Assembly: GCA_964016885.1 (NCBI GenBank)
Contig: OZ024746.1
Location: 18,042,001 to 18,106,000, forward strand
Origin: Eledone cirrhosa
Lineage: Eukaryota
Direction: 5' to 3'
DNA: 64,000 bases
Below, one piece after another: positions 31,501 to 64,000 of the stretch. The notes below the pieces were generated by a model. It was not told the origin of the DNA. It worked only from the letters and a program-made list of their open reading frames with translations, and ran no database searches. The position numbers and the translations under genes are program-made. Numbering within the stretch: the first letter of the stretch is position 1; the number at the start of each line of letters is the position of its first letter.

Positions 31501-33536
31501 TATTATAGTTGACAAGTAGTGAGAGTGCTTCTGACTTCATAATGTTTCTAGTAAATTATTATATGGTATGGTATGGTCCTGTAACTCCTCTGCAAGTCTG
31601 ATCACAGCAGATTTCTTCAGAGAAGGATAGCGAGTGAGAGAGAGGAAATGAGAAAGATATAAAGGAAGAATCAACGCATCAAAAGACTGGTGTAGCAGTT
31701 CTGAGAACAATGTGGCTTTGCAGATGATCAATGCAAATTGACAGTGGAAAGGCACTCCTGCTCAAGTTTGAAGAGAACTATTGACCTTCAGGAGAAGCAA
31801 TGACCCCTGATTGTATTCAGCAACCAAAACAAATAAGAAGTACACCAAATCCAATGCTCCTAGGGGTGGCCCTGGTTCTTCTTATTTGCGAGTGTAAACT
31901 TGGTTAGATTAGATAGAAATGGATAATTTGGCAAAGATGCCAGAAAATCGATGTTGTACTTTCAGTAGTTTATGGTCTTCCTGGATGACATTTTATAAAT
32001 ATTTTGTTGTCTTCACATTTGGTTTTCAATCATTGTTCTCAGTTTGTTTTGTTTTCTTTTCAGTCAAGACTAATAAGGAGAGTGAACAGTGCTATGATCA
32101 GGACTATAGGAAAAAAGAACATGTGAAATCCAACTTGAAATTACCACAACATCTCTTAAAATCCACAGCTAGAGGTCAAGTGGATGATCAGACGAAAGGA
32201 AATATACAACAAATTTACCTTGACCATCAACAGTTACCTGTTGCTAACGTAACTGGTGGTTATAACACTGTCTCTGATAATTTATCAACTGTAGCACCAC
32301 ACCGTAATCCTCTGATTCAAGGTCGACCCGCATACAAGGCACAGCCTGCACACACAAATTTAGGAATTAACCCCAAAAATATGATTAACATGCCTCCTGA
32401 TGGCAAATCTACCGCTCCAATTGTGCCTTCAATGTTTAATCACAACTCTGACTTGACTAATTTGAGTACAACTGTTATGAATTCAACTACTCAAACTTCT
32501 GTTTTAGTGACTGCAGACAACACTGCACCGCTTTCTGTCTATGCCAATAATTCAATGGGTGCCTGGACTCGGAGTATGCACCCTGTATGCACACGGACTG
32601 TTGTTGCATGCTCAAATAATACTCTAGTTTCGACAGGCTCTTCAAATTCCAGTCCACCACCAAGACATAATCTAGGCAATATGAAGAATAGTAACATATG
32701 TTCCAATTCAATACCTCAGTCCCCATCTAGTGCTGCTCCTGATTCAACCTGTTCATCCTCATCTGACCAAGCTGCTGGCTTGGCCACACCGAACTTCCTT
32801 GCACAATGCTCAAACCAAAGTAGTGTCATTACGAATACCATCGTTTATTCATCTCAGACTTTGAACTCAAGTTCTCCGAGCCAAGTTTCTACAGGCCGGT
32901 CAGGAATGTGCAAAACATGTGGCTGTGATGGCTACCACCAATTCAGTGTGATTTCCTCTCCTGTGGCTCCACCAGCTAATAATATCCCTCCTAACCATTG
33001 GCCATCCTTTGCAGGGAACATGGGCTACATGCCACAAAATTCTAATGGTTTGATACCAGTTCACTACCCAATGCACTTGGTTAGTGCGATCCCTCCTGAT
33101 CATGTCTATAGCAACCCGACTAACATAAATTTGGTACATATGAACTCTTCAAATCAAGCAGCTGTATCATCATCATGTTCCTCTACATCGTCATCGTGTA
33201 TGCTGAGCCAGATCTGTAACTATGGATCATTTAGTCATCATGCCACACCACCACAACTGCCGTTTGCAATGATTAACAAACACTACCGGTCATGTTTTAA
33301 TTGTGGAGGATCAGATCATGTTGCCAGTGATTGTAAAGAAACATCTATGGAAGCTATGACAGGTAACATATTTTATTTCAAATATTCCTTGTTTTTTTCA
33401 CCATTTATTTATTCATTTAATTAAATTTAATTTTTTAGTTTCAACTTCTGTAAACTGTTTTTAATGTCTTGTTTGTATTTTATATTTTTCAGGCCAGTAT
33501 CGGTTGAATTTCAAGAGCAAAACTGCGGCAGACTGA
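12775..33536 (+). CDS. ZCCHC14: ZCCHC14/ZCCHC2-family zinc-knuckle protein, 5'-partial; join(12775-12846,19079-19142,19913-19973,21710-21819,23688-23750,24747-24825,25974-26187,27835-27884,29386-29870,32064-33362,33493-33536)
   Basis: Eleven AG/GT-bounded exons chain with consistent phase into 2541 nt (846 aa + stop). PX-like segment (VSWSNGETTEVYKT...LEKLPPKFLECDHLVKFF), CKTCGC motif, and C-terminal CFNCGGSDHVASDCKETSM...GQYRLNF, which resembles the vertebrate ZCCHC14/2 terminus. Confidence 0.82.
14521..14685. mobile_element. piggyBac-type MITE (family 1)
   Basis: TTAA|CCCTTTGGCATTTA ... TAAATGCTAAAGGG|TTAA: terminal inverted repeats with a TTAA target. Confidence 0.75.
16225..16440 (+). 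mobile_element. degraded DNA-transposon terminus (Tc1-mariner/pogo-like), partly triplicated
   Basis: TACCGTAAATACTCATATAAGCTGAGAAATATGTGACAAAA at ~16337, partial copies at ~16228 and ~16290, and an inverted relative at ~49810-49848. Confidence 0.45.
16444..18466. repeat. ~2-kb minisatellite, ~65 units of 29/32 bp (TTTGGTGGKGAATATTA[TTA]CACTGGTTTCAH)
   Basis: Directly visible tandem array with no unique spacers. Confidence 0.97.
18681..18871. mobile_element. piggyBac-type MITE (family 1), opposite orientation
   Basis: CTAACCTTTTAGCATTTA ... TAAATGCTAATGGGTTAA, with internal GAGAGAATTCTGGC shared with the other copies. Confidence 0.7.
19079..19142 (+). CDS. ZCCHC14: ZCCHC14-like exon (FARTFDDVNVYKQDRRTPYLL)
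   Basis: Polypyrimidine tract + cag acceptor, gtaag donor, phase 0-1. Confidence 0.7.
19196..19294. repeat. 31-bp tandem repeat x3
   Basis: TATAATATTGAGCTGYTRATATCATT repeated three times. Confidence 0.85.
19913..19973 (+). CDS. ZCCHC14: ZCCHC14-like exon (NFHKEEHVDDGNLQNISHYMG)
   Basis: tttttatag acceptor, gtaagt donor, phase 1-2. Confidence 0.72.
21710..21819 (+). CDS. ZCCHC14: ZCCHC14-like exon (QLEKLPPKFLECDHLVKFF...), end of PX-like domain
   Basis: aacag acceptor, gtttgt donor, phase 2-1. Confidence 0.75.
23225..23510 (+). mobile_element. tRNA-derived SINE with CORE-like central motif
   Basis: A box TGGCTTAGTGG, B-box-like GGTTTGATTCC, then TGTTCTTGAACAAAACACTT. Confidence 0.75.
23688..23750 (+). 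CDS. ZCCHC14: ZCCHC14-like exon (ANEQPVISPYNQKSFNTASPS)
   Basis: ttccag acceptor, gtaaat donor, phase 1-1. Confidence 0.7.
24012..24134. repeat. 30-bp tandem repeat x4
   Basis: ATGGAGTGGTGTGACAGCAGTAGAGKGCCT units. Confidence 0.85.
24431..24620. mobile_element. piggyBac-type MITE (family 2)
   Basis: CCCTTTTAATATCAAACCACCTGAAACC ... GAAAGGG|TTAA, with relatives at ~14250-14505 and ~30440-30595. Confidence 0.55.
24747..24825 (+). CDS. ZCCHC14: ZCCHC14-like exon (GEISNRQHHQSTYYNPHHSQLSSNNY)
   Basis: tttttcag acceptor, gtaaat donor, phase 1-2. Confidence 0.7.
25974..26187 (+). CDS. ZCCHC14: ZCCHC14-like Ser/Pro-rich exon
   Basis: Same frame as ORF 25993-26271. ttgcag acceptor, gtaagt donor, phase 2-0. 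Confidence 0.8.
26200..26425 (-). mobile_element. degraded RTE-type LINE 3' fragment
   Basis: The minus strand encodes the RRPRGRPRPR motif typical of RTE C-termini. Confidence 0.5.
26880..27210 (-). mobile_element. tRNA-derived SINE
   Basis: On the minus strand: TGGCTTGGTTG A box, GAGTTCGATTCC B box, TGTGTCCTTGAGCAAGACACT. Confidence 0.75.
27481..27688. mobile_element. piggyBac-type MITE (family 1)
   Basis: TTAACCCTTTACCATTTA ... TAAATGCTAAAGGGTTAA. Confidence 0.75.
27835..27884 (+). CDS. ZCCHC14: ZCCHC14-like exon (SKDEEKLYYQEIPKNSR)
   Basis: ttacag acceptor, gtgagt donor, phase 0-2. Confidence 0.72.
28200..28512 (+). mobile_element. degraded RTE LINE C-terminal fragment
   Basis: LHWYGHVMHMEDDSC...WDDVIRADLTKL is homologous to copies A-D. 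Confidence 0.75.
29386..29870 (+). CDS. ZCCHC14: ZCCHC14-like exon with poly-Gln/His tract
   Basis: Same frame as ORF 29249-29881. tctag acceptor, gtaaaa donor, phase 2-1. Confidence 0.85.
30830..31075 (+). mobile_element. tRNA-derived SINE (same family as 23225)
   Basis: TTGCCTAGTGG, GGTTCGATTCC, TGTTCTTGAGCAAAACAC. Confidence 0.72.
32064..33362 (+). CDS. ZCCHC14: ZCCHC14-like large exon with CCHC zinc knuckle (33293-33334)
   Basis: Within the 501-aa ORF. CX2CX4HX4C motif, ttttcag acceptor, gtaac donor. Confidence 0.9.
33493..33536 (+). CDS. ZCCHC14: ZCCHC14-like terminal coding exon (GQYRLNFKSKTAAD*)
   Basis: tttttcag acceptor, phase 1, TGA at 33534-33536. Confidence 0.8.
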
Positions 33537-48500: not shown

Positions 48501-49185
48501 TTATCATCATTTAATGCCTGGTCTCTTGATAGCAAGTGTTGGATAGGTTATCATAGACGAAGTCAGTACTTAACCAGAGATATTGACCACAGATGGGCTA
48601 GGACCTCATGTCACTTACACATGTTCCCACACACACTCACTCTTTCTTTTTCTATCCTCTTAGATGATTCATGTTTCATTTTTAGCATGACCTCTATGGC
48701 CAGATACCTTTCCTAATACCAATCACTTGGTTCATAGCTAAAAGTTAAAGCCTTACTTGAGCCTAGACGCTCATCAGGCAGGAGCTTATCCCGGTTTCAT
48801 GTGGTGTACAAGGCTTCCGACTGTGTTGTTGTTTGTTTACTTTTTGCATATATATATCATCATTTCATTTTACATCCGCTTTTCCCTGCTTGCAAGGGTG
48901 GGACAGGAACTGATTCTGGCTTGATTTCTACAGCTGGATGCCCTTCCTAACACCAACCTCATTTACAGTGAGTGCTGGGTGCTTTTTTGCCGTGGCACCT
49001 CCACGACCACTTTGCAGTGGAATGATATGGACCCCAGTCCCTATCATCTCATTTCTACAGCTGAATAAACTGGAGCAATGTGAAATAAAGTGTCTTGCTC
49101 AAGGAAACAACACAGAAAAAGTCTGAGAACTGAACTCACAACCTTTCGATTGCAAGGCCAATGCTCTAACCACTAAGCCATGTGC

Positions 49186-49255
<70 letters not shown>

Positions 49256-49333: not shown

Positions 49334-52300
49334 TTATGTGGTTGTAAGTGTATGTCAGTGTCTATGATCATAAATGTGTGTTTCTGTGTATATGTCAATG
49401 TTTCAGTGTATTTATAAAACTACGTTTGTAAGTTTCTGTTTAATGTAGCAGTGTTTCAATGGACAAGATATCATTATCATCATCGTTTAACGTCCACTTT
49501 CCATGCTAGCATATACATATATGTATGTGCGCAAGTTCATAACTAGTGTATTGTTCCCACCTCAATTTGTTTCCTCCTTAAATTTCATATTTTGCAGATA
49601 TATTTGTCAAATATGTGCATTATAAATATGATGACAAATGTTTCGTCATTTAAAATGTTATAATTTTCAGTCACAGAAATTACCAGAAGTATCCGTATGT
49701 GTCATTCCAGATATTTTGGTGTATTTTTTACACAAATGTTGAAGCTGGGGAAAATTGCCAAAATATTAACTTTAAAAATAAGCCAACACCTCGTTATAAC
49801 ATCAATATTTTTTGTCACATATTTCTCATCTTATACACAATTATGGTAACTCTTAAAGAATAGTGATAAGAAAACTAAATCTAAGAGATAGATTGATAGA
49901 GGGAGAAATTTAAGAATGATAAGTATCAACATAGATTAAAAGAGTGACAAACCTGCATTGCAAAATCTGATGTTAAACAACCCACTGTTACACTAACAGG
50001 GTCTATTTTCTCAGGTTCCATTTTCTGTTTTAGTGAACCAATGTTCTCTGGTGTAATCCACCCCTCATCATCATCATCTTCCTCCTCATAATCATCAATT
50101 TCCTCCTCCTCACCACTCTCATCATCTCTACCACATTCACCATCATCATCGTCATCATTAGAAACTGGCTCAATGCATTGTTCAGAAAGTATGTTTCCAT
50201 GTCCTAATCTTTTAGTTGATATTAAATCATTTTCAGACACATTCAAATTTTTCTCCTCATCTTGCTGTTCCTGAAAAAAAAGTATAAATATATATATATA
50301 TATATATATGAAGGCACATGGCTTAGTGGTTAGAGCATTGGCCTTGCAATCGAATGGTTGTGAGTTCAATTCTCAGACTGGGTGATGTGTTGTTTCCTTG
50401 AGCAAGACACTTTATTTCCCATTGCTCCAGTTTACTCAGCTGTAGAAGTGGTCGTGGAGGTGCCACGGCAAAAAAGCACCCAGCATTCACTGTAAATGAG
50501 GTTGGTGTTAGGAAGGGCATCCAGCTGTAGAAATCAAGCCAGAATCAGTTCCTAGCCCACCCTTGCAAGCAGGGAAAAGCGGACGTAAAGTGATGATGAT
50601 GATATATATATATACATACATACTTACATATATACGTGTGTGTGTCCATGTGTCCAACTCATGCCAGTCTCACTGTAGCGTCCACTTTCAACAGACTATC
50701 TTCTCATGCATTCTCCCCATTCACCAGTCTCTAATAATTGTTTCTACTTTTAGCACAAGGCCAGCAATTATCCAGTGCATCGACCCCGTAAGGATGAAAG
50801 GCAAAGTTAACCTTGGCGGGATTTGAACTCAGTCCGTAAAGGGACGTAACTATGCTGCAAAGCACTTCCATGCTACTTTCTTTTCAGCATCAGTGAAGGC
50901 AAATGCACCATTATTATTATCATCATCATCATCACCGTTTTCTTCCATGCTAGCATGGGTTAGACAGGTTGTCCTGTTGTGGGCAGTGTCTGGTCGGTTG
51001 ACCATGCCTTGCTCATAGAGGAACTGATTTTGGCTTGATTTCTACAGCTGAACGCCCTTCGTAACACCAACTTCATTTACAGTGAGTGCTGGGTGTTTTT
51101 CGTGGCCTACACATCCACTTTACAGTGTGGGCTGGGTGCTTTTTTGCCATGGCACCTCCACGACCACCTTGCAGTGGGAGGGTGTGGGGGCATATTGTCT
51201 ATATGCTTCAGCTTGTACCCATGGGAGGTCGGATACTCTGTATTACTGCGTGACGCCAGAGGTCACGGTCGTGTGTCATCACCTTTGAGAGGTGTAATTG
51301 GGTAAGGTCGGCTTTTATCACCTCATCCCAGGTCTTCTTGGGTTTCCCCACTCCGCGGTTTCCATTTACTTCTAGTGCTCTGCACCTTTTTATGCAGCTG
51401 TCATCCTTCATACGCATCACATGTCCATACCAACGCAACCGCCTCTCCTGCACATAGCATTTGATTCCTCTTATGCTCAGTCTCTCTCTCAATTCATTTA
51501 TGCTTTGCCGTTCGCGTATATTACTATTACACATCCATCGGAGCACGCAGGCTTCGTTTCTTTCTAATCTACGTAAGTCTTCCACAGACAGCGCCCAGGT
51601 CTCACTACCATGTAACATTGCTGTTCGGATACATGCATCATACAGTCTGCCTTTCATTTTGAGGGAGAAGCCGTTTGCAGCTAGCAGTGGTAGTAGTTCC
51701 CTGAACTTCTTCCATCTCGTTCTTACCCTAGTTATTGTACTTTCTGAACACCCACCTCCGCTGCTAATTCGGTCACCTAGGTAGCAGAAGCTGTCTACTG
51801 TTTCTACAGAGCCCTCCCCGAGATTGGTGGTACTTGTTTCCTGTGGCTGTTTGCTGTCCCAGCACAGCTGCTACATGTGAACCCTACATTCTTAATTAAG
51901 CTTCGTGAGATTCCGCTATATCTCTTGTGTACCCATTGTTTGCATTTGGGGCAGAGAATGGAGTTCCTACCTACACCTTTCCTACATACTGAGCAAGGCT
52001 ATTTCCCTGAGGTGATCTGGGTTCTGTTTTCTCGTCTACTTACAAGGACATTAGTCTTTGTCGTGTTGACTTTGAGACCCTTTCTTTCTAGTCCCTGCTT
52101 CCAAGTTTGGAATTTCTTCTCTAGTTCTACCATAGATTCAGCTATAAGTGTGAGGTCATCAGCATACAGGAGTTCCCATAGGCATCCGGTCTTATACTCT
52201 TCCGTTATTGCCTGCAGGACTATGATGAACAGGAGAGGGCTAAGAACAGAGCCCTGCTGGACACCAACCTGTACGCTAAATTCCTCGCTATACTCATTGC

Positions 52301-54133
52301 TAATCCTAACTTTGCTGACTGCTCCCCTATACATGGCTTGTACAGCTTTCACAAGCCATTAATCTACTCCTAGTTTTCTAAGAGTCCACCAGATTGCAGC
52401 ACGTGGAACTCTGTCAAAGGCTTTCTCGAGATCGATGAATGCCAGGTAGAGTGGCTTACTTTTAGCTAGATGCTTTTCCTGTAACTGCCTCACAAGGAAG
52501 AGGGCATCAGTGGGGCCTCTTCCTGGTACAAACCCAAATTGCATCTCATCTAGTTTCATCCGGTCCCTAATCAACTGTGCTGTAACTCTTTCTGTTACTT
52601 TTATGACCTGGTCCATCAGCTTCATACCTCTATAGTTTCCTCTATCTAGTGCATCACCTTTACCTTTGTAGCAGTTGACAATGATGCTACTGCACCAATC
52701 TTTTGGTATGACACCTTCTAGTATTACCTGGTTAACAATACGTGTGGTTATAGTGTGACCTACAGACCCAGATGCCTTCAGCATCTCGGCAGCTATACCC
52801 AATGGACCGGTTGCCTTCCCCATCTTCATATCTTTGATTGCCTTACTTACTACGCTGCTGCTGACTTGTACTGCTGGCCCCTCTATAGGGTCTACTTGGG
52901 GTAGGGTCTCTTCTTCCCATGCATTCTCCTCATTTAGTAATCTATCTCGGACACATTTTCCCCACAACAATGTTTCAATTTTTCTAGACACACTGCCTCA
53001 CAATCCCGACCACTCCAGGTTGTAAAACATGAAAAATTTATTTTTTTCCACTTCTCTCTTTGCAAAATATACTCACCGCCTAGCTTCTTGGTAATGTTCT
53101 CTGATACCCCAATTCTGCCAGTCTTTCTTGGCCTTAATTGTTTTATTCACCCCCAAGTCACCCTTATTCTCCCTGGAACCCTGCTCTGTATCCTTAAGCA
53201 GATTATCTTTCAGTATCTTCCACTGCTCCTGTACATTGCATGTCTCTATTTCTTCTTCCTTACTGTTAAAAGCATCAAGCAAGATACTTCTAAATGTGTT
53301 ACTGGTTGAGGTTCTCTCAACTTCCATTGTACTTGGAAGGAATTTTTGATATGTTAGTTTTAATGGCTTGAACTTATTTGGAGTTTCATCAGTTTTTGTC
53401 AAAAAAAATGAATAATGTAGACAAAAATAAAAACAGAGTCAGTTTTGTTTTAGCCACCCTGTATGTTATTAATTAGAATCCCCATTTTGGATTATAGCTT
53501 GCATGATCAAGTGTTCAAATCCTAGTAAAGCTATTATAAGTAGCCATGAAGTGAGGCCTATTACACTGCTGGCAAAGTGGTCTGATATTGAATTCAAACT
53601 GGTGTGGTTAGCACTAAAACAGAATATCTTGTTGTACAAAGACTTTTCTGACAATTTTTAAGTAAATAGCAAAGGAAAACACAACAAAACAACAACTATA
53701 CCTGTTTAGATTCTAAATAAAAACCAGCAATATCGGTTACTTTTCCAAGTAGATTCCTAGAATTGACCCAGTTGACCTAGAAATAAAAAAAGGGAAATAT
53801 AAATGTATTGCTTTAAATAGTTGTTATAAGATATCCTCTCATCTATAGTATTATCTGTGAGGTAACTAAGTTGACATGGACCATAAACCAGCAAAAATTA
53901 TAAAAAATTGAAAATGGCTATAGTACTTAAGTTATTTTATGAAAAATTAAACTGATGCAGGGTGTAATACAATATCTTAGTTCTGAGATGGCAAGGTGTA
54001 GAAGTCTTAGCTGTAAAGTGGAAAGAAGTTGTTTTGGCTTTAAGATGGTAAGGATTGTGCCACAGAGAGGAACAGAACCCAGACTCATGCAGTTGCAAAG
54101 AATACTTCTTAACCACAGATATGCCAGCATCAC

Positions 54134-57100: not shown

Positions 57101-57770
57101 TTTGGCAAGCAACATGCGGCCTGATCATGCCACCATTCACAACCCTGACTGAGGACGACACCATTATACCAAGAACAGGAGCTTGATGTACATCGCTATA
57201 AATTTTTATTAAATTCACTGTCGACCCAGCCTTTTGTTTACAGTACCCTTATCTATGGTCCTACTCATTTTCATGAACCATTCATCCATCCATAACTTTC
57301 TCAGTGTCCACCATGCTGAATATTGGATTTTCAAATGTTTTTTTACAGATTAACAAGTGCTACTCCTTTGCTAATTACTTTCGATATACAAATACCTGGC
57401 GCATTTACTTAGAATGTAATTTCTAAACACATTTAGATAAAGAAAATGTTTTCTGAATAAATCGGTTTCACTTCTCTTAAATGAAATGAAAGTTTTAATC
57501 ATCAAACGGTTCGCAACACTTCGCAAAAATATTCTAGTTTTGGTGCTAGCTATTAGTTACACAGCATGCAAGTAGTGACATACACGTGGAACAAATCAGC
57601 CAACAAAAAACATTTTAAACGTATGTAAATGAACTTCAGACATTTTATTATGTAATTTCATGAAATATTAAAAAACAACGACTCACTTCTATAGGAGCAT
57701 TCTTGATAAAAGCTGCAGAGTCAACAATAACAAACTTCACTTTCTTGCGACTTAATTGATCAGACGCCAT
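45229..57770 (-). CDS. NOB1: RNA-binding protein NOB1 (18S rRNA 3'-end PIN endonuclease), complete, 418 aa; complement(join(45229-45501,45908-46049,47571-47668,49953-50270,53702-53776,54425-54558,55704-55836,57687-57770))
   Basis: Eight GT-AG exons total 1257 nt in phase. PIN motifs [17 protein letters not shown] and [24 protein letters not shown]; acidic region + GWITPEN; [17 protein letters not shown]; Zn ribbon LRCSAC...[10 protein letters not shown]; [11 protein letters not shown]...RRNPN. Confidence 0.96.
45908..46049 (-). CDS. NOB1: NOB1 exon 7
   Basis: [23 protein letters not shown]...RGLK. Confidence 0.93.
46795..47185 (-). mobile_element. two adjacent tRNA-derived SINEs of a second family (CCTTTCATCCTT...GGTCGATAAAATAAGTACCAG domain)
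   Basis: Further copies at ~50735-50865, ~55430-55570 and ~62500-62715. B-box-like GTTCAAATCC on the minus strand. Confidence 0.7.
47190..47540 (-). mobile_element. RTE-tail-related element with a ~113-bp internal tandem duplication
   Basis: (CAT)n tail; GGATGCCCTTCCTAACACCAACC block present twice. Confidence 0.7.
47571..47668 (-). CDS. NOB1: NOB1 exon 6
   Basis: [32 protein letters not shown], 98 nt. Confidence 0.93.
48857..49188 (-). mobile_element. tRNA-head/RTE-tail SINE
   Basis: Reverse complement of 50310-50603, with (GAT)n tail. Confidence 0.85.
49953..50270 (-). CDS. NOB1: NOB1 exon 5 (acidic region, WITPEN, TSDFAMQ)
   Basis: Within ORF 49926-50369, 318 nt, phase 0-0. Confidence 0.93.
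50310..50603 (+). mobile_element. tRNA-head/RTE-tail SINE
   Basis: TGGCTTAGTGG A box, GAGTTCAATTC B box, CCTTGAGCAAGACACTT, then sequence matching the RTE 3' UTR and (GAT)n. Confidence 0.87.
50919..52945 (-). mobile_element. 5'-truncated RTE LINE (copy D) in NOB1 intron 4
   Basis: ORFs 52359-52991, 51999-52352 and 51208-51657 contain [25 protein letters not shown] and RRLRWYGHV, broken by stops. Same 3' UTR as copy A. An older fragment lies at ~53070-53310. Confidence 0.93.
53702..53776 (-). CDS. NOB1: NOB1 exon 4
   Basis: [25 protein letters not shown], tttctag/gtatag boundaries. Confidence 0.8.
54425..54558 (-). CDS. NOB1: NOB1 exon 3
   Basis: [30 protein letters not shown]. Confidence 0.93.
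55704..55836 (-). CDS. NOB1: NOB1 exon 2
   Basis: [37 protein letters not shown], 133 nt. Confidence 0.92.
56083..56272. mobile_element. piggyBac-type MITE (family 1)
   Basis: TTAATCCTTTAGCATTTA ... TAAATGCTAAAGGGTTCA. Confidence 0.72.
57687..57770 (-). CDS. NOB1: NOB1 exon 1 ([28 protein letters not shown])
   Basis: AAAATGGCG start context, gtgagt donor. Confidence 0.9.
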
Positions 57771-58090: not shown

Positions 58091-59505
58091 CGATGGAGAA
58101 GTAGAAGTAGTTTAACTGCAACACAGTCTCTCATGTACTTAGTGGAAATGTCAGCTTTAATTCTTCCACAGAACATTTAGCGGAACTTGATTTCTAAATT
58201 ACAACTATTAACGCTCTTAGAATCGTGGAAAATATAGTCGGCAGCTATTATATTTACAGAAAGCTGTGATTCATAAAAATCTTTCCACCAGCAAGTTGCT
58301 TGCACACACATTTATGTACCATACTCGTTGAATTCTTTTTTAGACAAACAAGATTTTAAACGAAACTATAAATATATATACATATATAAATATATATTAT
58401 AAAAAGAGAAATAAAAACAAACCAATATCCACTGGCACCTGTATGAGTACAGAAACAGCTGGATAGATCGTTGTGGACAACTTTACCTTATTACCAATTT
58501 TAATGCGACAGGTCTTCCCTTACAAACACTGAACCTTATACATTGAAATCTCAGGTTTGAACTTTTTATCATCATTATTATTATTGTTATTATTTTACAT
58601 GATATTGTCAATGCCCTGTGAAAATGGGGTGACACGATTGACGACAGCAGCCTGTGATCATGAGCAAATATTTCTTAACATTGCTTTAACCTCTATCATT
58701 TCTGTTCGTTATAAAGTGTTTGATAATTATCAAATATATATCGGTAACATGTACTAACCATTCCCCCTTACAGCATTTTAATTCGACATAGCTGTCTCAC
58801 CACAGATCTTGCGTCTTTCTTGTCTGTAAATGTAAAGTTTCGTTGCTGTTTTCCTTTTTAGAGGATTCTGATTTAATTTGCTAAGTTGTATAGAACTTGG
58901 GTCAAACGAATTTTAGTTAGCTGGTGATGTATATATATATTTGTCAATTTAAAGTCAAATTGAGAAATACTTCGTGTTGAGAATGACTAGAAAAAAACAA
59001 ACTTTTTTTAAGTGTAGGCTAATATTAATTAATTGAAATGACGCAATCAGTTGGTAGTTATGAGAGTGTTGGTGTTGGATTTTTACTTTTAAATATTCAG
59101 ATTCAATTATAAATATATAATGCATTTTAATTTTCAAGTGTATCTCATATCTCTGTCCACACACAGACACACAATCCAGAGCTATATAAGAGAGTATATA
59201 ATTGCCAAATAGTTTATATAGTTATAGGTGGAAGATATGTGAGATATTCTTAAGGTAAAAACATTTAATGAGATCAGATTTTTATTCTATCATGATCTTT
59301 GGGTATATATGTGTGTGTGTGTGTTTGTGGTTGTATGTTAAGTGTAACGTGTTTCTGTGTTGAACTATCGATAAACATCTACAGATCTAAGCAAAACTCA
59401 CTTATTCTGAGCTCAATCACCTGAAATCAGCGATCATAACTGACCTGGAGGTAGTCTTTTTCACCTGAGATTATAGTGATCAGATTAGCAATTAACAACT
59501 AATTA

Positions 59506-59589
<84 letters not shown>

Positions 59590-59796
59590 CGAAGACGCGT
59601 GGCTGAGTGGTTAGAGAATTGTATTCGTAATCGTAAGGTTGTGAGTTCGATTCCCTAACCGGGCGATGCGTTATGTCCTTGAGCAAGACACTTTATTTTA
59701 CGTTGCTCCTTCTATCTCGAGTTGCGATAGATAATATTAGCAATTGGAAAGACCAATGGAAACATTGTTTCCTCAATCCGATTTGACGAAAGTTGA

Positions 59797-59851
59797 CATA
59801 TACCAGTGGTTTCTTGAAAGCAAACAAATGTTGCTTTCAATCATCAGAATG
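59797..59851 (-). ncRNA. minimal type I hammerhead ribozyme motif A
   Basis: CAUU-CUGAUGA-UUGAAAGCAA(CAUUUGU)UUGCUUUCAA-GAAA-CCACUGG-UA/UAUG: complete core, 10-bp stem II, GUA cleavage triplet, weak stem I. Confidence 0.6.
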
Positions 59852-59921
59852 AAAGTTGACATATATATATAATGTCAACTTTCGTCTGACTGCTGTCGAT
59901 ATATATATATATATATATATA

Positions 59922-60079
59922 TAGAAGTGGTTACACAACAGTTAGTTCACCATACCGAGAACAATTGTTTCACCTTAGCGGATCCTCAGCTCGTAAATTT
60001 AAGATTACGAGCTGAGGATCCGCTAAGGTGAAACAATTGTTCTCGGTATGGTGAACTAACTGTTGTGTAACCACTTCTA
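59922..60079. repeat. perfect 75-bp inverted repeat with 8-nt loop
   Basis: 59922-59996 is the exact reverse complement of 60005-60079. Confidence 0.97.
60008..60045 (+). ncRNA. minimal type I hammerhead ribozyme motif B (mirror copy on - strand at 59956-59993)
   Basis: CGAG-CUGAGGA-U-CC(GCUAA)GG-U-GAAA-CAAUUG-UU/CUCG: 4-bp stem I and palindromic stem III ACAAUUGU, as in Penelope-type minimal hammerheads. Confidence 0.55.
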
Positions 60080-61100
60080 CCTAACTCGTCCCATGGACTG
60101 AGTGCTCTACCACTACGGATATTACCTTCCAGCGTTCTACCACTGTGGAGAAGTTCAAGTATCTTGGGGCGGTGTTCATGAGTGATGGAAGGCTGGAGAC
60201 TGAATTAATATATATATATATCGATAGTCATACGAAAGTTGACATATATATAATGTCAACTTTCGTCTGACTGTCGATATCGATAGTCATACGAAAGTTG
60301 ACATATGTCAACTTTCGTCAAATCGGACCGAGGAAACAACGTTTCCATTGGTCTTTCCAGTTGCTAATATTATCTATCGCAATAGAAGGAGCAGCGTGAA
60401 ATAAAGTGTCCTGCTCAAGGACATAACGCATATATATATAGATATATGCAGATATATATATACAAATAATGAATCAAAACATCAAATATGTTTAGAATTT
60501 TGTGTTTCTCAATAAGCAAGCTCAATAGATTTCATCTATATACATATATCTTTTCATTTCATTTGGTTACATATATAAGTGGGCGTGAAACACTACTCGA
60601 TCAGGGATATCTGGAGATATGGTTAATATTAAACGGTGAAACCTTAGGTAGAGCATTTGTTCCGTGTATGAACATAAATAATGTATACACACATATACAC
60701 ACGCACATATTTATATAACGTTGAACCTTTATTTTTCTGTTGATCATGTATTTTTTTAACGATCACTTGTGTTTGGTAATATTGTTGGAGATTCAATAGT
60801 CTTAATTACATAATATGAAATTCTGTAAGATTGCTTTTTAGAAAAAATAACTTAAAGACTTAAACAAAAAGGCAACTAAATTTATTATATTTTACTGAAT
60901 CTAAGGATTGTGGATGTCTGTAGTTGGTTCGCTGTTGAGATGGTTAAAATTTCTGGCATCCAGATTTAATGTGGGTAAGCAAGGTTTGCCTATTACGATT
61001 CCTCATACCAAAAATGCACGCACACAATATTATATATATATATAACGTATACATATATATGAGTGTATATTAAAATATGTAAGTTAAATTCTTTATATTT

Positions 61101-61285
61101 GTCTCTGATGAGCTATTCTTACTGGAATGAACTAATTGTTGTTAGTCTAGCGAAATGCGCGTAAGTTTGTTAAATGTTTTAATAATAATAATCCTTTCTA
61201 AACTTTCGATTGAGCCCTGCCCTTCAATGTTTCTAATTTCTCATTCTTTCTTCTGATGAAGGACTAGCATCTGAAATGTTAACTC
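61101..61285 (+). mobile_element. probable Penelope-like element relic(s) with two degenerate hammerhead motifs
   Basis: CTGATGA-GCTA...TAGC-GAAA-TGCGCGTA (61105-61163) and CTGATGA-AGGA...TCT-GAAATGTTA (61253-61281). Confidence 0.45.
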
Positions 61286-64000
61286 TTTTCCTGCTATTTC
61301 AAGCGTTAAACTGATATATTCCATCCATATACTGTACCGACTGTTGTTATTTCTGTTTACCTTTTACACACACACACACATATATATATATTCATTTCAC
61401 TTTATTAAAGTAACTATTCATTTATTCGTTAGTCTATTAACAGGGTGGTTGTTTAATTGTCAAAGCTCTCTCGTCACACATTCTGTTCGCTACATATATG
61501 TCTGAGTGTGTACAACTTTTATCGAGTCCTCTCTGGATTTTGGTCTTTGTATTTATCATTATTTCTATATATATATATATATATAATGTGTGTGTGTTTA
61601 TTGCTTTATGTGTACTAGACGATAGGCTTGCAATGATATTTTTCTATCACCTCGATTATCATATGAAATAGAAATATTTAGATTCCACTGACCATTTTAC
61701 GGATTTTTCACCTTGACTCATGCATGCTCTCTTTCAAACACCCACGCGCGTATCTAGCATTTAGTGAACTACCACCCTGTCTATGTATGTCTACACATGT
61801 ATATGTGTGTGTGTGTGTGTATTTATATTTATATATATACACACACAATACTAATGATTATTGTATGTGTGAGTTGTTTTTACTTACAAAAGAAAATATT
61901 TAAATACCTTGTATCTATCCACATAAAACGTGGGTGAAGTGCTTGATCTATATAGGTAGTGTTCTTAATTGTTATAGCACTTACAAATATACATTTCTAT
62001 TGTATAATACATTGCTAATGAGGGTAATTAGTGAAGTGAATTTTGGTTTTTTATTTGTTTTTATCTAAGTGCTAATTAATATATCCCAGAATATTCGTGG
62101 ATGATGAATGCAAAATAGACGCCAACCTTGGATACTATAAATCGTTAAGCAAAGCTAAAATTATTTCTTACACGTCAAGTTGTGACGTTCATGCAAAGAC
62201 TATTTAGTGAAATCGTAAATTGAGGTAAATATAAACTAATATACACTCACATTACTCATCAAACTTCCTTTACAACAAGGATTTCTGATTTCTAAAATCT
62301 ATATTTCTTTAATAACAACAGTCAATAATATTTTAATATAGGCACACGGCCACACACGTGAAGGAAATGAGTGTGCTATTCATATTTTTCCCCCAAGAAA
62401 AAAAAAAAAAGGTTTATTCGGGAATCAAAACCTGACCTGCTAACCCTTGGAGCTTTCCACTACTGTATATGGCACTAGTCAACTTGATAGTCCTAGTAAT
62501 AATGATTTGGAACTTAGGTATATGACCAGAGATGGGGGGGGGGGCTATTAAATTGATTCCATATCGTTACTGGGACTTTATTTTATCTACTCCCTACCTC
62601 CATAAAGAATGGCAGAGCTATCCTTGGCGGGATTTGAACTCAGAACGTAATGGGGCGTAACTATATGCCGCAAAACATTCGACGCTCTACCGATTCTGCC
62701 AATCCACCGCCCGTAATAGTCGTAGTAATAATGATTTTGAAGTTAGGTACATGGTCAGAGATTTGGATGGGGGTGGTTATTTAATAAAGTATCAACGTAA
62801 ATGTATTATAATCTTGTGGTGTTTGACACATGCTGATGACACACCTCGTCTTTACCAGCCTTGACTGGAACATTAAAATGGTGACCACACTCACACTTAC
62901 AATATATTGTTTTCACAGAGATCGTTTCTTGTGTTTCTTTTCATGTTATTGTATTTGCTACTGTGATGTTAATATATGGCAGTAAGTTATTCACTGCAAT
63001 ACATTTATCATCTTGACTTAATTATTTCTATTCAGTCCCTTTCTTTAAGGGGGTACATATGATAATGATTATTATTTTGACAGCTTTTAACATTATTAGC
63101 CCCTTTTAAAAAAAATATTATTTTCCTTCCTTAACTTATTTTCATGAGACGCCAGACGGAAATATATTTTGTAAGAAATGTGAAATTTATATTGGTTAAG
63201 ATAACTAAAAAAAGACGAAGTGATTTAACAGTTATCGTTATTGTACAAAATAATTTTATGAGAACGGGGTCCAGGAGTCTACAATAGAAGGAATTTTAAC
63301 TGCGAATATGTCAACGAACGGTATTTATGACCGAATGAATGGATAATACTTTCTTATTCCTGGCTAGTAGAAGGAAAAGCAGTTTTAATTAACCTTTAAA
63401 AATCAGTAATAAAAAAGTGTAGAATAAAGTTGTTCGTCCACGCGAAAATTTAGCTTCATTTACTAACAGAATTTCCAACTCCCGCAGTTGAATACAAAAC
63501 AATCCACATGCCAAATATACGAACACTATTGTAGTCGATAGAATCGACCTTGTATATAATTAATACGGTTTCAGAACAAGACCAAGTACGTATATCTCAC
63601 ATTACTTTCTCGGCCATCTCCAACGCTGAAAGGTTGCTGCGATTAACATTCTACAATATTCTGCTTGCCAATGTGTTCTGGTTAGGCTAGGGCAAAAAAA
63701 AACAATTGGGATGTTTTCTTTGAGCTTAAAAAGTTTAGAGAGAGAGAGTCCAATTAGATCCGAAATTCGATTAAAAGTATATATCATATTCTCAATTTAC
63801 AGGGAAATTCATATTTTCTTGCATGTTTACACACCTACATATTAGATATATCTATACATTTATACACATTGGTGCATTCTTGGTTACACACACACACACT
63901 CTCTCGTGTGTAACCCAGAATACACCAACGTGTTTAAATGTATAGACATATCTAATATGTGAGCGTGTAAACATGCCAAAAAATACGAATTTCCCTGTAA

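Follow-up and report, generated by a model that had tools for sequence, protein, structure and literature searches.

A perfect 75-bp hairpin bearing a hammerhead motif in octopod DNA: probably a young, heavily truncated Penelope-like element insertion

In the stretch of octopod DNA analysed here (64,000 nucleotides, hereafter the window), positions 59922-59996 pair with 60005-60079 as a perfect hairpin of 75 bp, 100% complementary, around an 8-nt loop, just as the initial annotation had described. We consider it probable that this hairpin is a young and heavily 5′-truncated insertion of a Penelope-like element (PLE) in a (TA)n run. With comparable confidence, our analysis suggests that the PLE would have cut the (TA)n run, that reverse transcription would have started from two internal sites 65 nt apart, and that both copies, having stopped early, would have been joined head to head. 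The host was placed among octopods on the strength of a 503-codon frame (31913-33421) whose product shows 86% identity to a ZCCHC2-like protein of Argonauta hians and 85% to one of Octopus vulgaris. The features of the insertion and its surroundings are as follows.

59589..59801, plus strand: host context, SINE-like head and left arm of an older imperfect inverted repeat
59800..59853, minus strand: host context, second high-copy repeat with a degenerate hammerhead-like core and no matching stem I
59899..59923, no strand: left (TA)n target run, its last 2 bp common to the left arm
59922..59996, minus strand: left arm, a 5′-truncated repeat copy that points outward and terminates at the first of the family's prominent 3′ ends (mirror of 60079)
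59956..59993, minus strand: minimal type I hammerhead, mirror copy (descriptor match)
59997..60004, no strand: loop, 8 nt, unlike the family's upstream sequence save its last base
60005..60079, plus strand: right arm, a 5′-truncated repeat copy with the same sequence as the left arm
60008..60045, plus strand: minimal type I hammerhead (descriptor match, core consensus from PMC3088659)
60008-60011/60042-60045, plus strand: stem I, 4 bp
60012-60018, plus strand: C3 to A9
60019-60029, plus strand: U10.1-U11.1 mismatch and 2-bp stem II
60030-60033, plus strand: G12 to A15.1
60033-60040, plus strand: palindromic stem III, 8 nt
60041, plus strand: H17 = U (cleavage position)
60080..60144, plus strand: one-sided 65-nt tail of the same repeat family as the arms, ending at the family's second prominent 3′ end
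60145..60208, plus strand: 64-nt piece of a different high-copy repeat, captured with the insertion
60209..60221, no strand: right (TA)n target run
60303..60431, minus strand: host context, older inverted repeat, right arm, about 90% like 59668-59801

The hairpin is the only perfect inverted repeat of at least 18 bp in the 64-kb window when loops of up to 200 nt are allowed and low-complexity arms are excluded. Its minus strand folds at −143.1 kcal/mol against a shuffle mean of −32.7 kcal/mol, and none of 200 shuffles was as stable. The outer 2 bp (TA) of the 75 also belong to the flanking (TA)n run, and the whole insert (59922-60208) is flanked by a (TA)n run on either side and nested in an older imperfect inverted structure. 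Elsewhere in the window, an imperfect palindrome of at least 204 bp (77%) at 63797-64000 reaches the window end and contains no match to our hammerhead descriptor. Decayed LINE-type reverse-transcriptase (RT) frames lie at 5911-7524, 11094-12410 and 51211-52997; in 11094-12410, the one frame scanned, a PHD-like zinc finger follows the RT core. A tRNA-SeC predicted by ARAGORN at 18185-18265 was rejected as spurious, lying inside a 32-bp tandem array (16444-18466).

Positions 59800-60320 were compared at 80% likeness with four of the 15 listed public sequencing runs (X1, X4, X5 and X13). This comparison revealed that 60004-60144 is a very abundant repeat, with a summed contig depth in X1 that peaks at 8.2e5 over the arm and is about 6e5 over the tail, the listed single contigs having depths of 3.9-10. 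The summed depth, which is itself no copy number, suggests tens of thousands of copies or more. Relatives of the repeat were also detected in a second organism (X4) and in the raw reads of another study (X13). The 64-kb window held no further copy of the family, and exact-pattern scans found no match in metagenome contigs (two scans) or viral contigs (one scan). In the mapping of 59800-60320, X1 depth was absent at 60268-60320. Read-end pile-ups in X13 at 59963, 60035 and 60206 fall at AATT sites and were taken as RAD library restriction cuts, and a lone opposite-strand joint in X13, with one start only, was set aside.

Family copies have two prominent 3′ ends, at 60079 and 60144, which are 65 nt apart and both joined to (TA)n. 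Behind 60079, (TA)n loose ends were found in 1334 X13 reads and 53 X1 contigs; behind 60144, (AT)n loose ends were found in 1362 X13 reads, 51 X1 contigs and 6 X5 contigs (both among the best 24 of 680 loose ends). At the present locus the left arm ends at the first family end and the right arm copy runs on to the second, which leaves the one-sided tail. The right arm had previously been described as continuing into unique sequence. This description was wrong: beyond it lie the tail of the same repeat and then 64 nt of another repeat. Other copies of that second repeat (60145-60208) continue past both ends with shared flanks in the public runs, at a depth about 15-fold below that of the tail in X1. 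A frame within it reads VEKFKYLG, and its translation shares 8 of 16 residues with a LINE RT piece elsewhere in the window. From this resemblance we take it to be likely a stretch of LINE reverse transcriptase. A Pfam protein search with 60145-60208 returned no families, with none among 50 candidates either, and phmmer gave three matches, all to repetitive or unrelated proteins (one of them aligned). Within the tail, 60096-60144 holds two short copies of an AC-rich motif (60101-60119 and 60131-60149, 79% alike), which on the minus strand resemble a tRNA A-box. In X4 and X5 many copies diverge past 60122, yet close with a similar motif ahead of (TA)n.

Other head-to-head copies of the family were present in the public runs. 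The centre of the hairpin was skipped in 14 of the best 15 of 26 joints (X1, X4 and X5), with junctions and fillers different from those seen here and with contig depths of 5.5 to 94 across the three runs. Both arms were spanned, with 14-16 other letters between them, in three of the best 24 of 8371 pieces. The loop itself had a depth of 458 in X1, against 8.2e5 in the arm (0.06%), and therefore the hairpin has not been multiplied as a unit. This bears on the idea of a non-autonomous, MITE-like or retrozyme-like element that multiplies as a whole hairpin. Such an element would fit the very high copy number and the lack of a nearby ORF, and hammerhead-bearing non-autonomous derivatives of PLEs are described (bioRxiv 10.64898/2026.07.22.740005). 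The non-LTR retrozymes reported there are, like the octopod family, non-coding, equipped with a type I hammerhead and probably of PLE origin, but they form head-to-tail tandem units each with a hammerhead, whereas the octopod hairpin is a head-to-head pair. The low loop depth, the differing centres and fillers of other copies, the absence of a tandem array at the locus, and the 3389 X13 reads in which family sequence goes on past 60004 on the upstream side (the visible consensus there spanning 30 nt) all make this explanation improbable.

The features expected of a PLE insertion are, in comparison, well represented. The initial annotation had pointed to inverted partial repeats as a PLE insertion signature, and this was borne out by a high-copy family, two 3′ ends on (TA)n, a one-sided tail, a minimal hammerhead and further head-to-head copies. 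The PLE traits found thus comprise an interspersed 5′-truncated family, an inverted head-to-head copy, a one-sided tail and a microsatellite or AT-rich target; a direct partial-tandem pseudo-LTR is absent at this truncated copy. Inverted 5′-truncated copies, a one-sided tail of 30-40 bp and microsatellite targets are reported as standard for EN-bearing PLEs (PMC8557442, PMC8969392), the inverted truncated copy, one-sided tail and microsatellite bias being documented also in PMC3846280 together with PMC8557442, and rotifer Penelope elements are described with head-to-head junctions that carry palindromes (PMC3846280). The octopod insertion resembles EN+ PLE insertions in its 5′ truncation, its head-to-head inverted copy, its one-sided tail and its (TA)n target without a discernible target-site duplication. 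It departs from the usual form in that both copies are shorter than 150 nt, no ORF is left and 64 nt of a foreign repeat lie inside, and its tail measures 65 nt against the usual 30-40. PLEs are reported as abundant and partly recent in O. vulgaris (PMC13282606), where they make up 6.83% of the genome according to the supplement of that paper. The family is connected to an autonomous PLE gene by inference from its architecture. No PLE RT or GIY-YIG gene was found linked to the family within the 30 nt of upstream consensus in view, inspection by eye of the six frames of 60600-61400 showed no remnant of a PLE ORF, and three short family motifs were not present in the PLE supplement of PMC8557442.

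The insertion can be pictured as a series of steps. The PLE enzyme would cut the (TA)n target on both strands, the two cut ends would prime reverse transcription, each at one of the two internal start sites, both cDNA copies would stop after less than 150 nt, and the free cDNA ends would be joined with a few filler bases; the extra 64-nt piece would likely enter by template switch or repair. Under this scheme the arms would be identical because both were made in one event. The 8-nt loop is likely filler at the head-to-head junction, because other copies carry family sequence upstream of 60004 that is unlike the loop. The closest parallel is PAc, the Poseidon element of Anolis carolinensis, which is reported to cut and extend both target strands in vitro, to use two adjacent internal RT start sites that define its tail, and to be active in vitro independently of ribozyme cleavage (PMC11167929). 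The octopod family shares with PAc, as described there, the two RT start points that set the tail, AC-richness at both ends and AT-rich targets; the PAc ORF begins inside the hammerhead, whereas no start codon was seen there in the octopod copy (PMC11167929).

Within a PLE origin, the arms could instead have arisen by snap-back, in which a cDNA primed at 60144 folds back after a few untemplated bases, copies itself, and is cut or joined at 60079. Both arms begin at exactly the same base, a symmetry that one cDNA snapping back would explain no less well than two cDNAs being joined. Self-priming has been proposed for head-to-head PLE palindromes (PMC3846280). Among the best 15 of 26 joints, four of the 14 that skip the centre are likewise symmetric within 1 nt, but the other ten are asymmetric. 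Copying would also have to halt exactly at a prominent family end, and the extension of both target strands by PAc in vitro (PMC11167929) speaks for two cDNAs. We hold snap-back to be a serious possibility that is nonetheless somewhat improbable, and the second arm may be either a second cDNA or such a snap-back copy.

The arms without mismatches had been taken as a sign of a very recent or homogenised origin. A young origin stood, in that, of the 16 variable sites listed for 60005-60144, the copy carries the family-majority letter at 15 (X1, best 40 of 60 variant rows), the sole listed exception being 60133; the need for homogenisation fell away. If sites had changed by about 0.7% since the insertion, the chance of two arms of 75 nt still being identical would be 0.35. 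A young insertion is thus enough to account for the perfect arms, homogenisation being unnecessary; judged from its letters, the hairpin copy is simply young.

A perfect inverted repeat may also reflect an assembly or fold-back read artefact, a reading to which the zero mismatches lend themselves. The sequence of the locus rests on the assembly, and no listed piece of the public runs spans the exact hairpin copy. Such an artefact is very unlikely, because the mirror breaks off precisely where the family has a prominent natural end and passes into the (TA)n run instead of going on, and because the flanks beyond the hairpin are only about 90% mirror images, with an indel. The other head-to-head copies in contigs of three runs, at the depths given above, likewise argue against it.

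We then consider the hammerhead motif. Its core is complete (C3 U4 G5 A6 N7 G8 A9, G12 A13 A14, A15.1-U16.1 and H17), and N7 was the only core position that varied among family copies (best 40 of 60 variants). A strict descriptor matched twice in the window, once in each arm, and in none of 200 shuffled windows, and a loose one matched in 13 of 200 shuffled windows, both descriptors having been composed after the motif had been seen. Rfam covariance models gave no match at the gathering score in the whole window, and 73 matches in 59400-60600 at E values of up to 10, none of them a hammerhead. The microRNA matches in that interval lay below gathering scores and were dismissed as reflecting the long stem only. 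The motif resembles PLE minimal hammerheads in being of type I with a full core, a 4-bp stem I, a U after A9 and a palindromic stem III that implies a dimer; it differs from them in its U10.1-U11.1, its 2-bp stem II and its GUU cleavage triplet. A G10.1-C11.1 pair is reported as highly conserved in PLE hammerheads (PMC4209133). This pair, which opens stem II, is absent here, and since a U-U takes its place, the motif is, to judge by sequence, a variant of the PLE minimal hammerhead and not the consensus form. U10.1-U11.1 is described as occurring in natural hammerheads and as the best tolerated mispair, and 2-bp stems II occur in them as well (PMC3088659). The 8-nt palindrome of stem III could form a dimer with a predicted duplex energy of −6.4 kcal/mol, and the predicted probability of the monomer hammerhead fold in an isolated 46-mer is 5e-7. 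Changes in stem III at 60036 and 60037 touch 5% and 0.4% of X1 depth; in X13 the 60036 variant is inflated by RAD library restriction cuts. Minimal hammerheads of Schistosoma are reported in pairs on opposite strands, 100-700 bp apart (PMC4209133), whereas the two cores here are adjacent, 22 nt apart. Three more hammerhead-like cores (59847 on the minus strand, 61105 and 61253) failed the descriptor. The latter two are degenerate cores on the plus strand with 148 nt between them, and the one at 61105 matches the hairpin arm in 14 of 15 nt (61128-61142, E 0.47), a likeness that is probably due to chance or to an old relative.

On both strands the antisense arm precedes the hammerhead, and the expectation that read-through RNA would sequester the ribozyme held in prediction, with a mean pairing probability of at least 0.99 for either strand. 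A read-through hairpin of about −142 kcal/mol would thus block the hammerhead. This block would be of little consequence, because PLE-type minimal hammerheads are reported to require dimers and to cleave poorly nonetheless (PMC4209133, PMC6765202). Dicer or ADAR may possibly act on the hairpin RNA. None of the runs listed for this sequence is annotated as RNA, which says nothing about expression. Taken further, the locus could be a selected source of hairpin RNA (endo-siRNAs or an editing substrate) that regulates the family or NOB1, given the 75-bp duplex predicted for read-through RNA, whichever strand is transcribed, and the nearness of the locus to this gene. NOB1 occupies the minus strand and starts with the codon at 57770; some 2.15 kb separate this codon from the hairpin, which lies upstream of it, outside the coding span and its introns, though NOB1 may possess an untranslated upstream exon. 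Rotifer Penelope copies are reported to yield small RNAs, but mostly piRNA-like ones and not hairpin siRNAs (PMC3846280). The hairpin copy is also young, is one of many alike and shows no sign of conservation of this insertion. A selected function is accordingly very improbable, and the hairpin is most likely functionless debris. An inverted SINE-like pair (48858-49188 and 50311-50601, 83%) surrounds a probable NOB1 exon within 49929-50372 and, being inside the NOB1 gene, is more plausible than the hairpin as a source of double-stranded RNA and a substrate for editing.

The older structure that hosts the insertion (59589-59853 and 60303-60431) is itself inverted. Its arms are about 90% alike with (TA)n at both outer ends, and one is 77 nt longer and includes the whole SINE-like head, which we presume to be tRNA-derived. 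The second hammerhead-like repeat (59800-59853, minus strand) points outward in this structure. This host structure may have arisen by an earlier insertion of much the same form, in which case a PLE-like process would have brought in a SINE piece in antisense. A short self-complementary unit occurs around the insertion in three to four repeats (59851-59892 and 60218-60319), and was found nowhere else in the window and at low depth in the runs.

A further proposal, which we put forward as speculative and rather doubtful, is that the main job of the hammerhead in this family is joining and not cutting. Two antisense cDNAs, one per start site, would come from the two ends of the cut target, and they would pair only through self-complementary segments, which the ribozyme helices would supply. 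If this were true, most insertions would take the form of head-to-head hairpins that pair one end type with the other, with junctions lying on stems I, II and III. The two family ends occur at about 1:1 in two data sets (1334:1362 reads and 53:51 contigs, among the best 24 of 680 loose ends). Arm starts fell on the three hammerhead helices in 22 of 28 cases (best 15 of 26 joints), a count to be read with the reference itself being palindromic, junctions upstream of it being invisible and the helices covering much of the region. The arms of the present copy stop just 5′ of stem I of the ribozyme, and this junction just outside the helix counts against the joining proposal. In the literature surveyed, which left most subscription papers and repeat databases uncovered, we found no description of the octopod family or of junctions on hammerhead helices. 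If correct, the proposal would account both for the retention of a nearly inactive ribozyme by PLEs and for the frequency of head-to-head units among them.

The locus alone carries little weight, being one of many similar scars. The family, by contrast, offers a test bed: its young copies probably number tens of thousands, its two 3′ ends are sharp, and its head-to-head junctions are many. Counting these in one good assembly could address both how inverted units form and what purpose the hammerhead serves in the PLE cycle. The octopod lineage is noted for heavy A-to-I editing, and if many perfect hairpins of this kind lie in transcribed regions, they would add to its load of double-stranded RNA.
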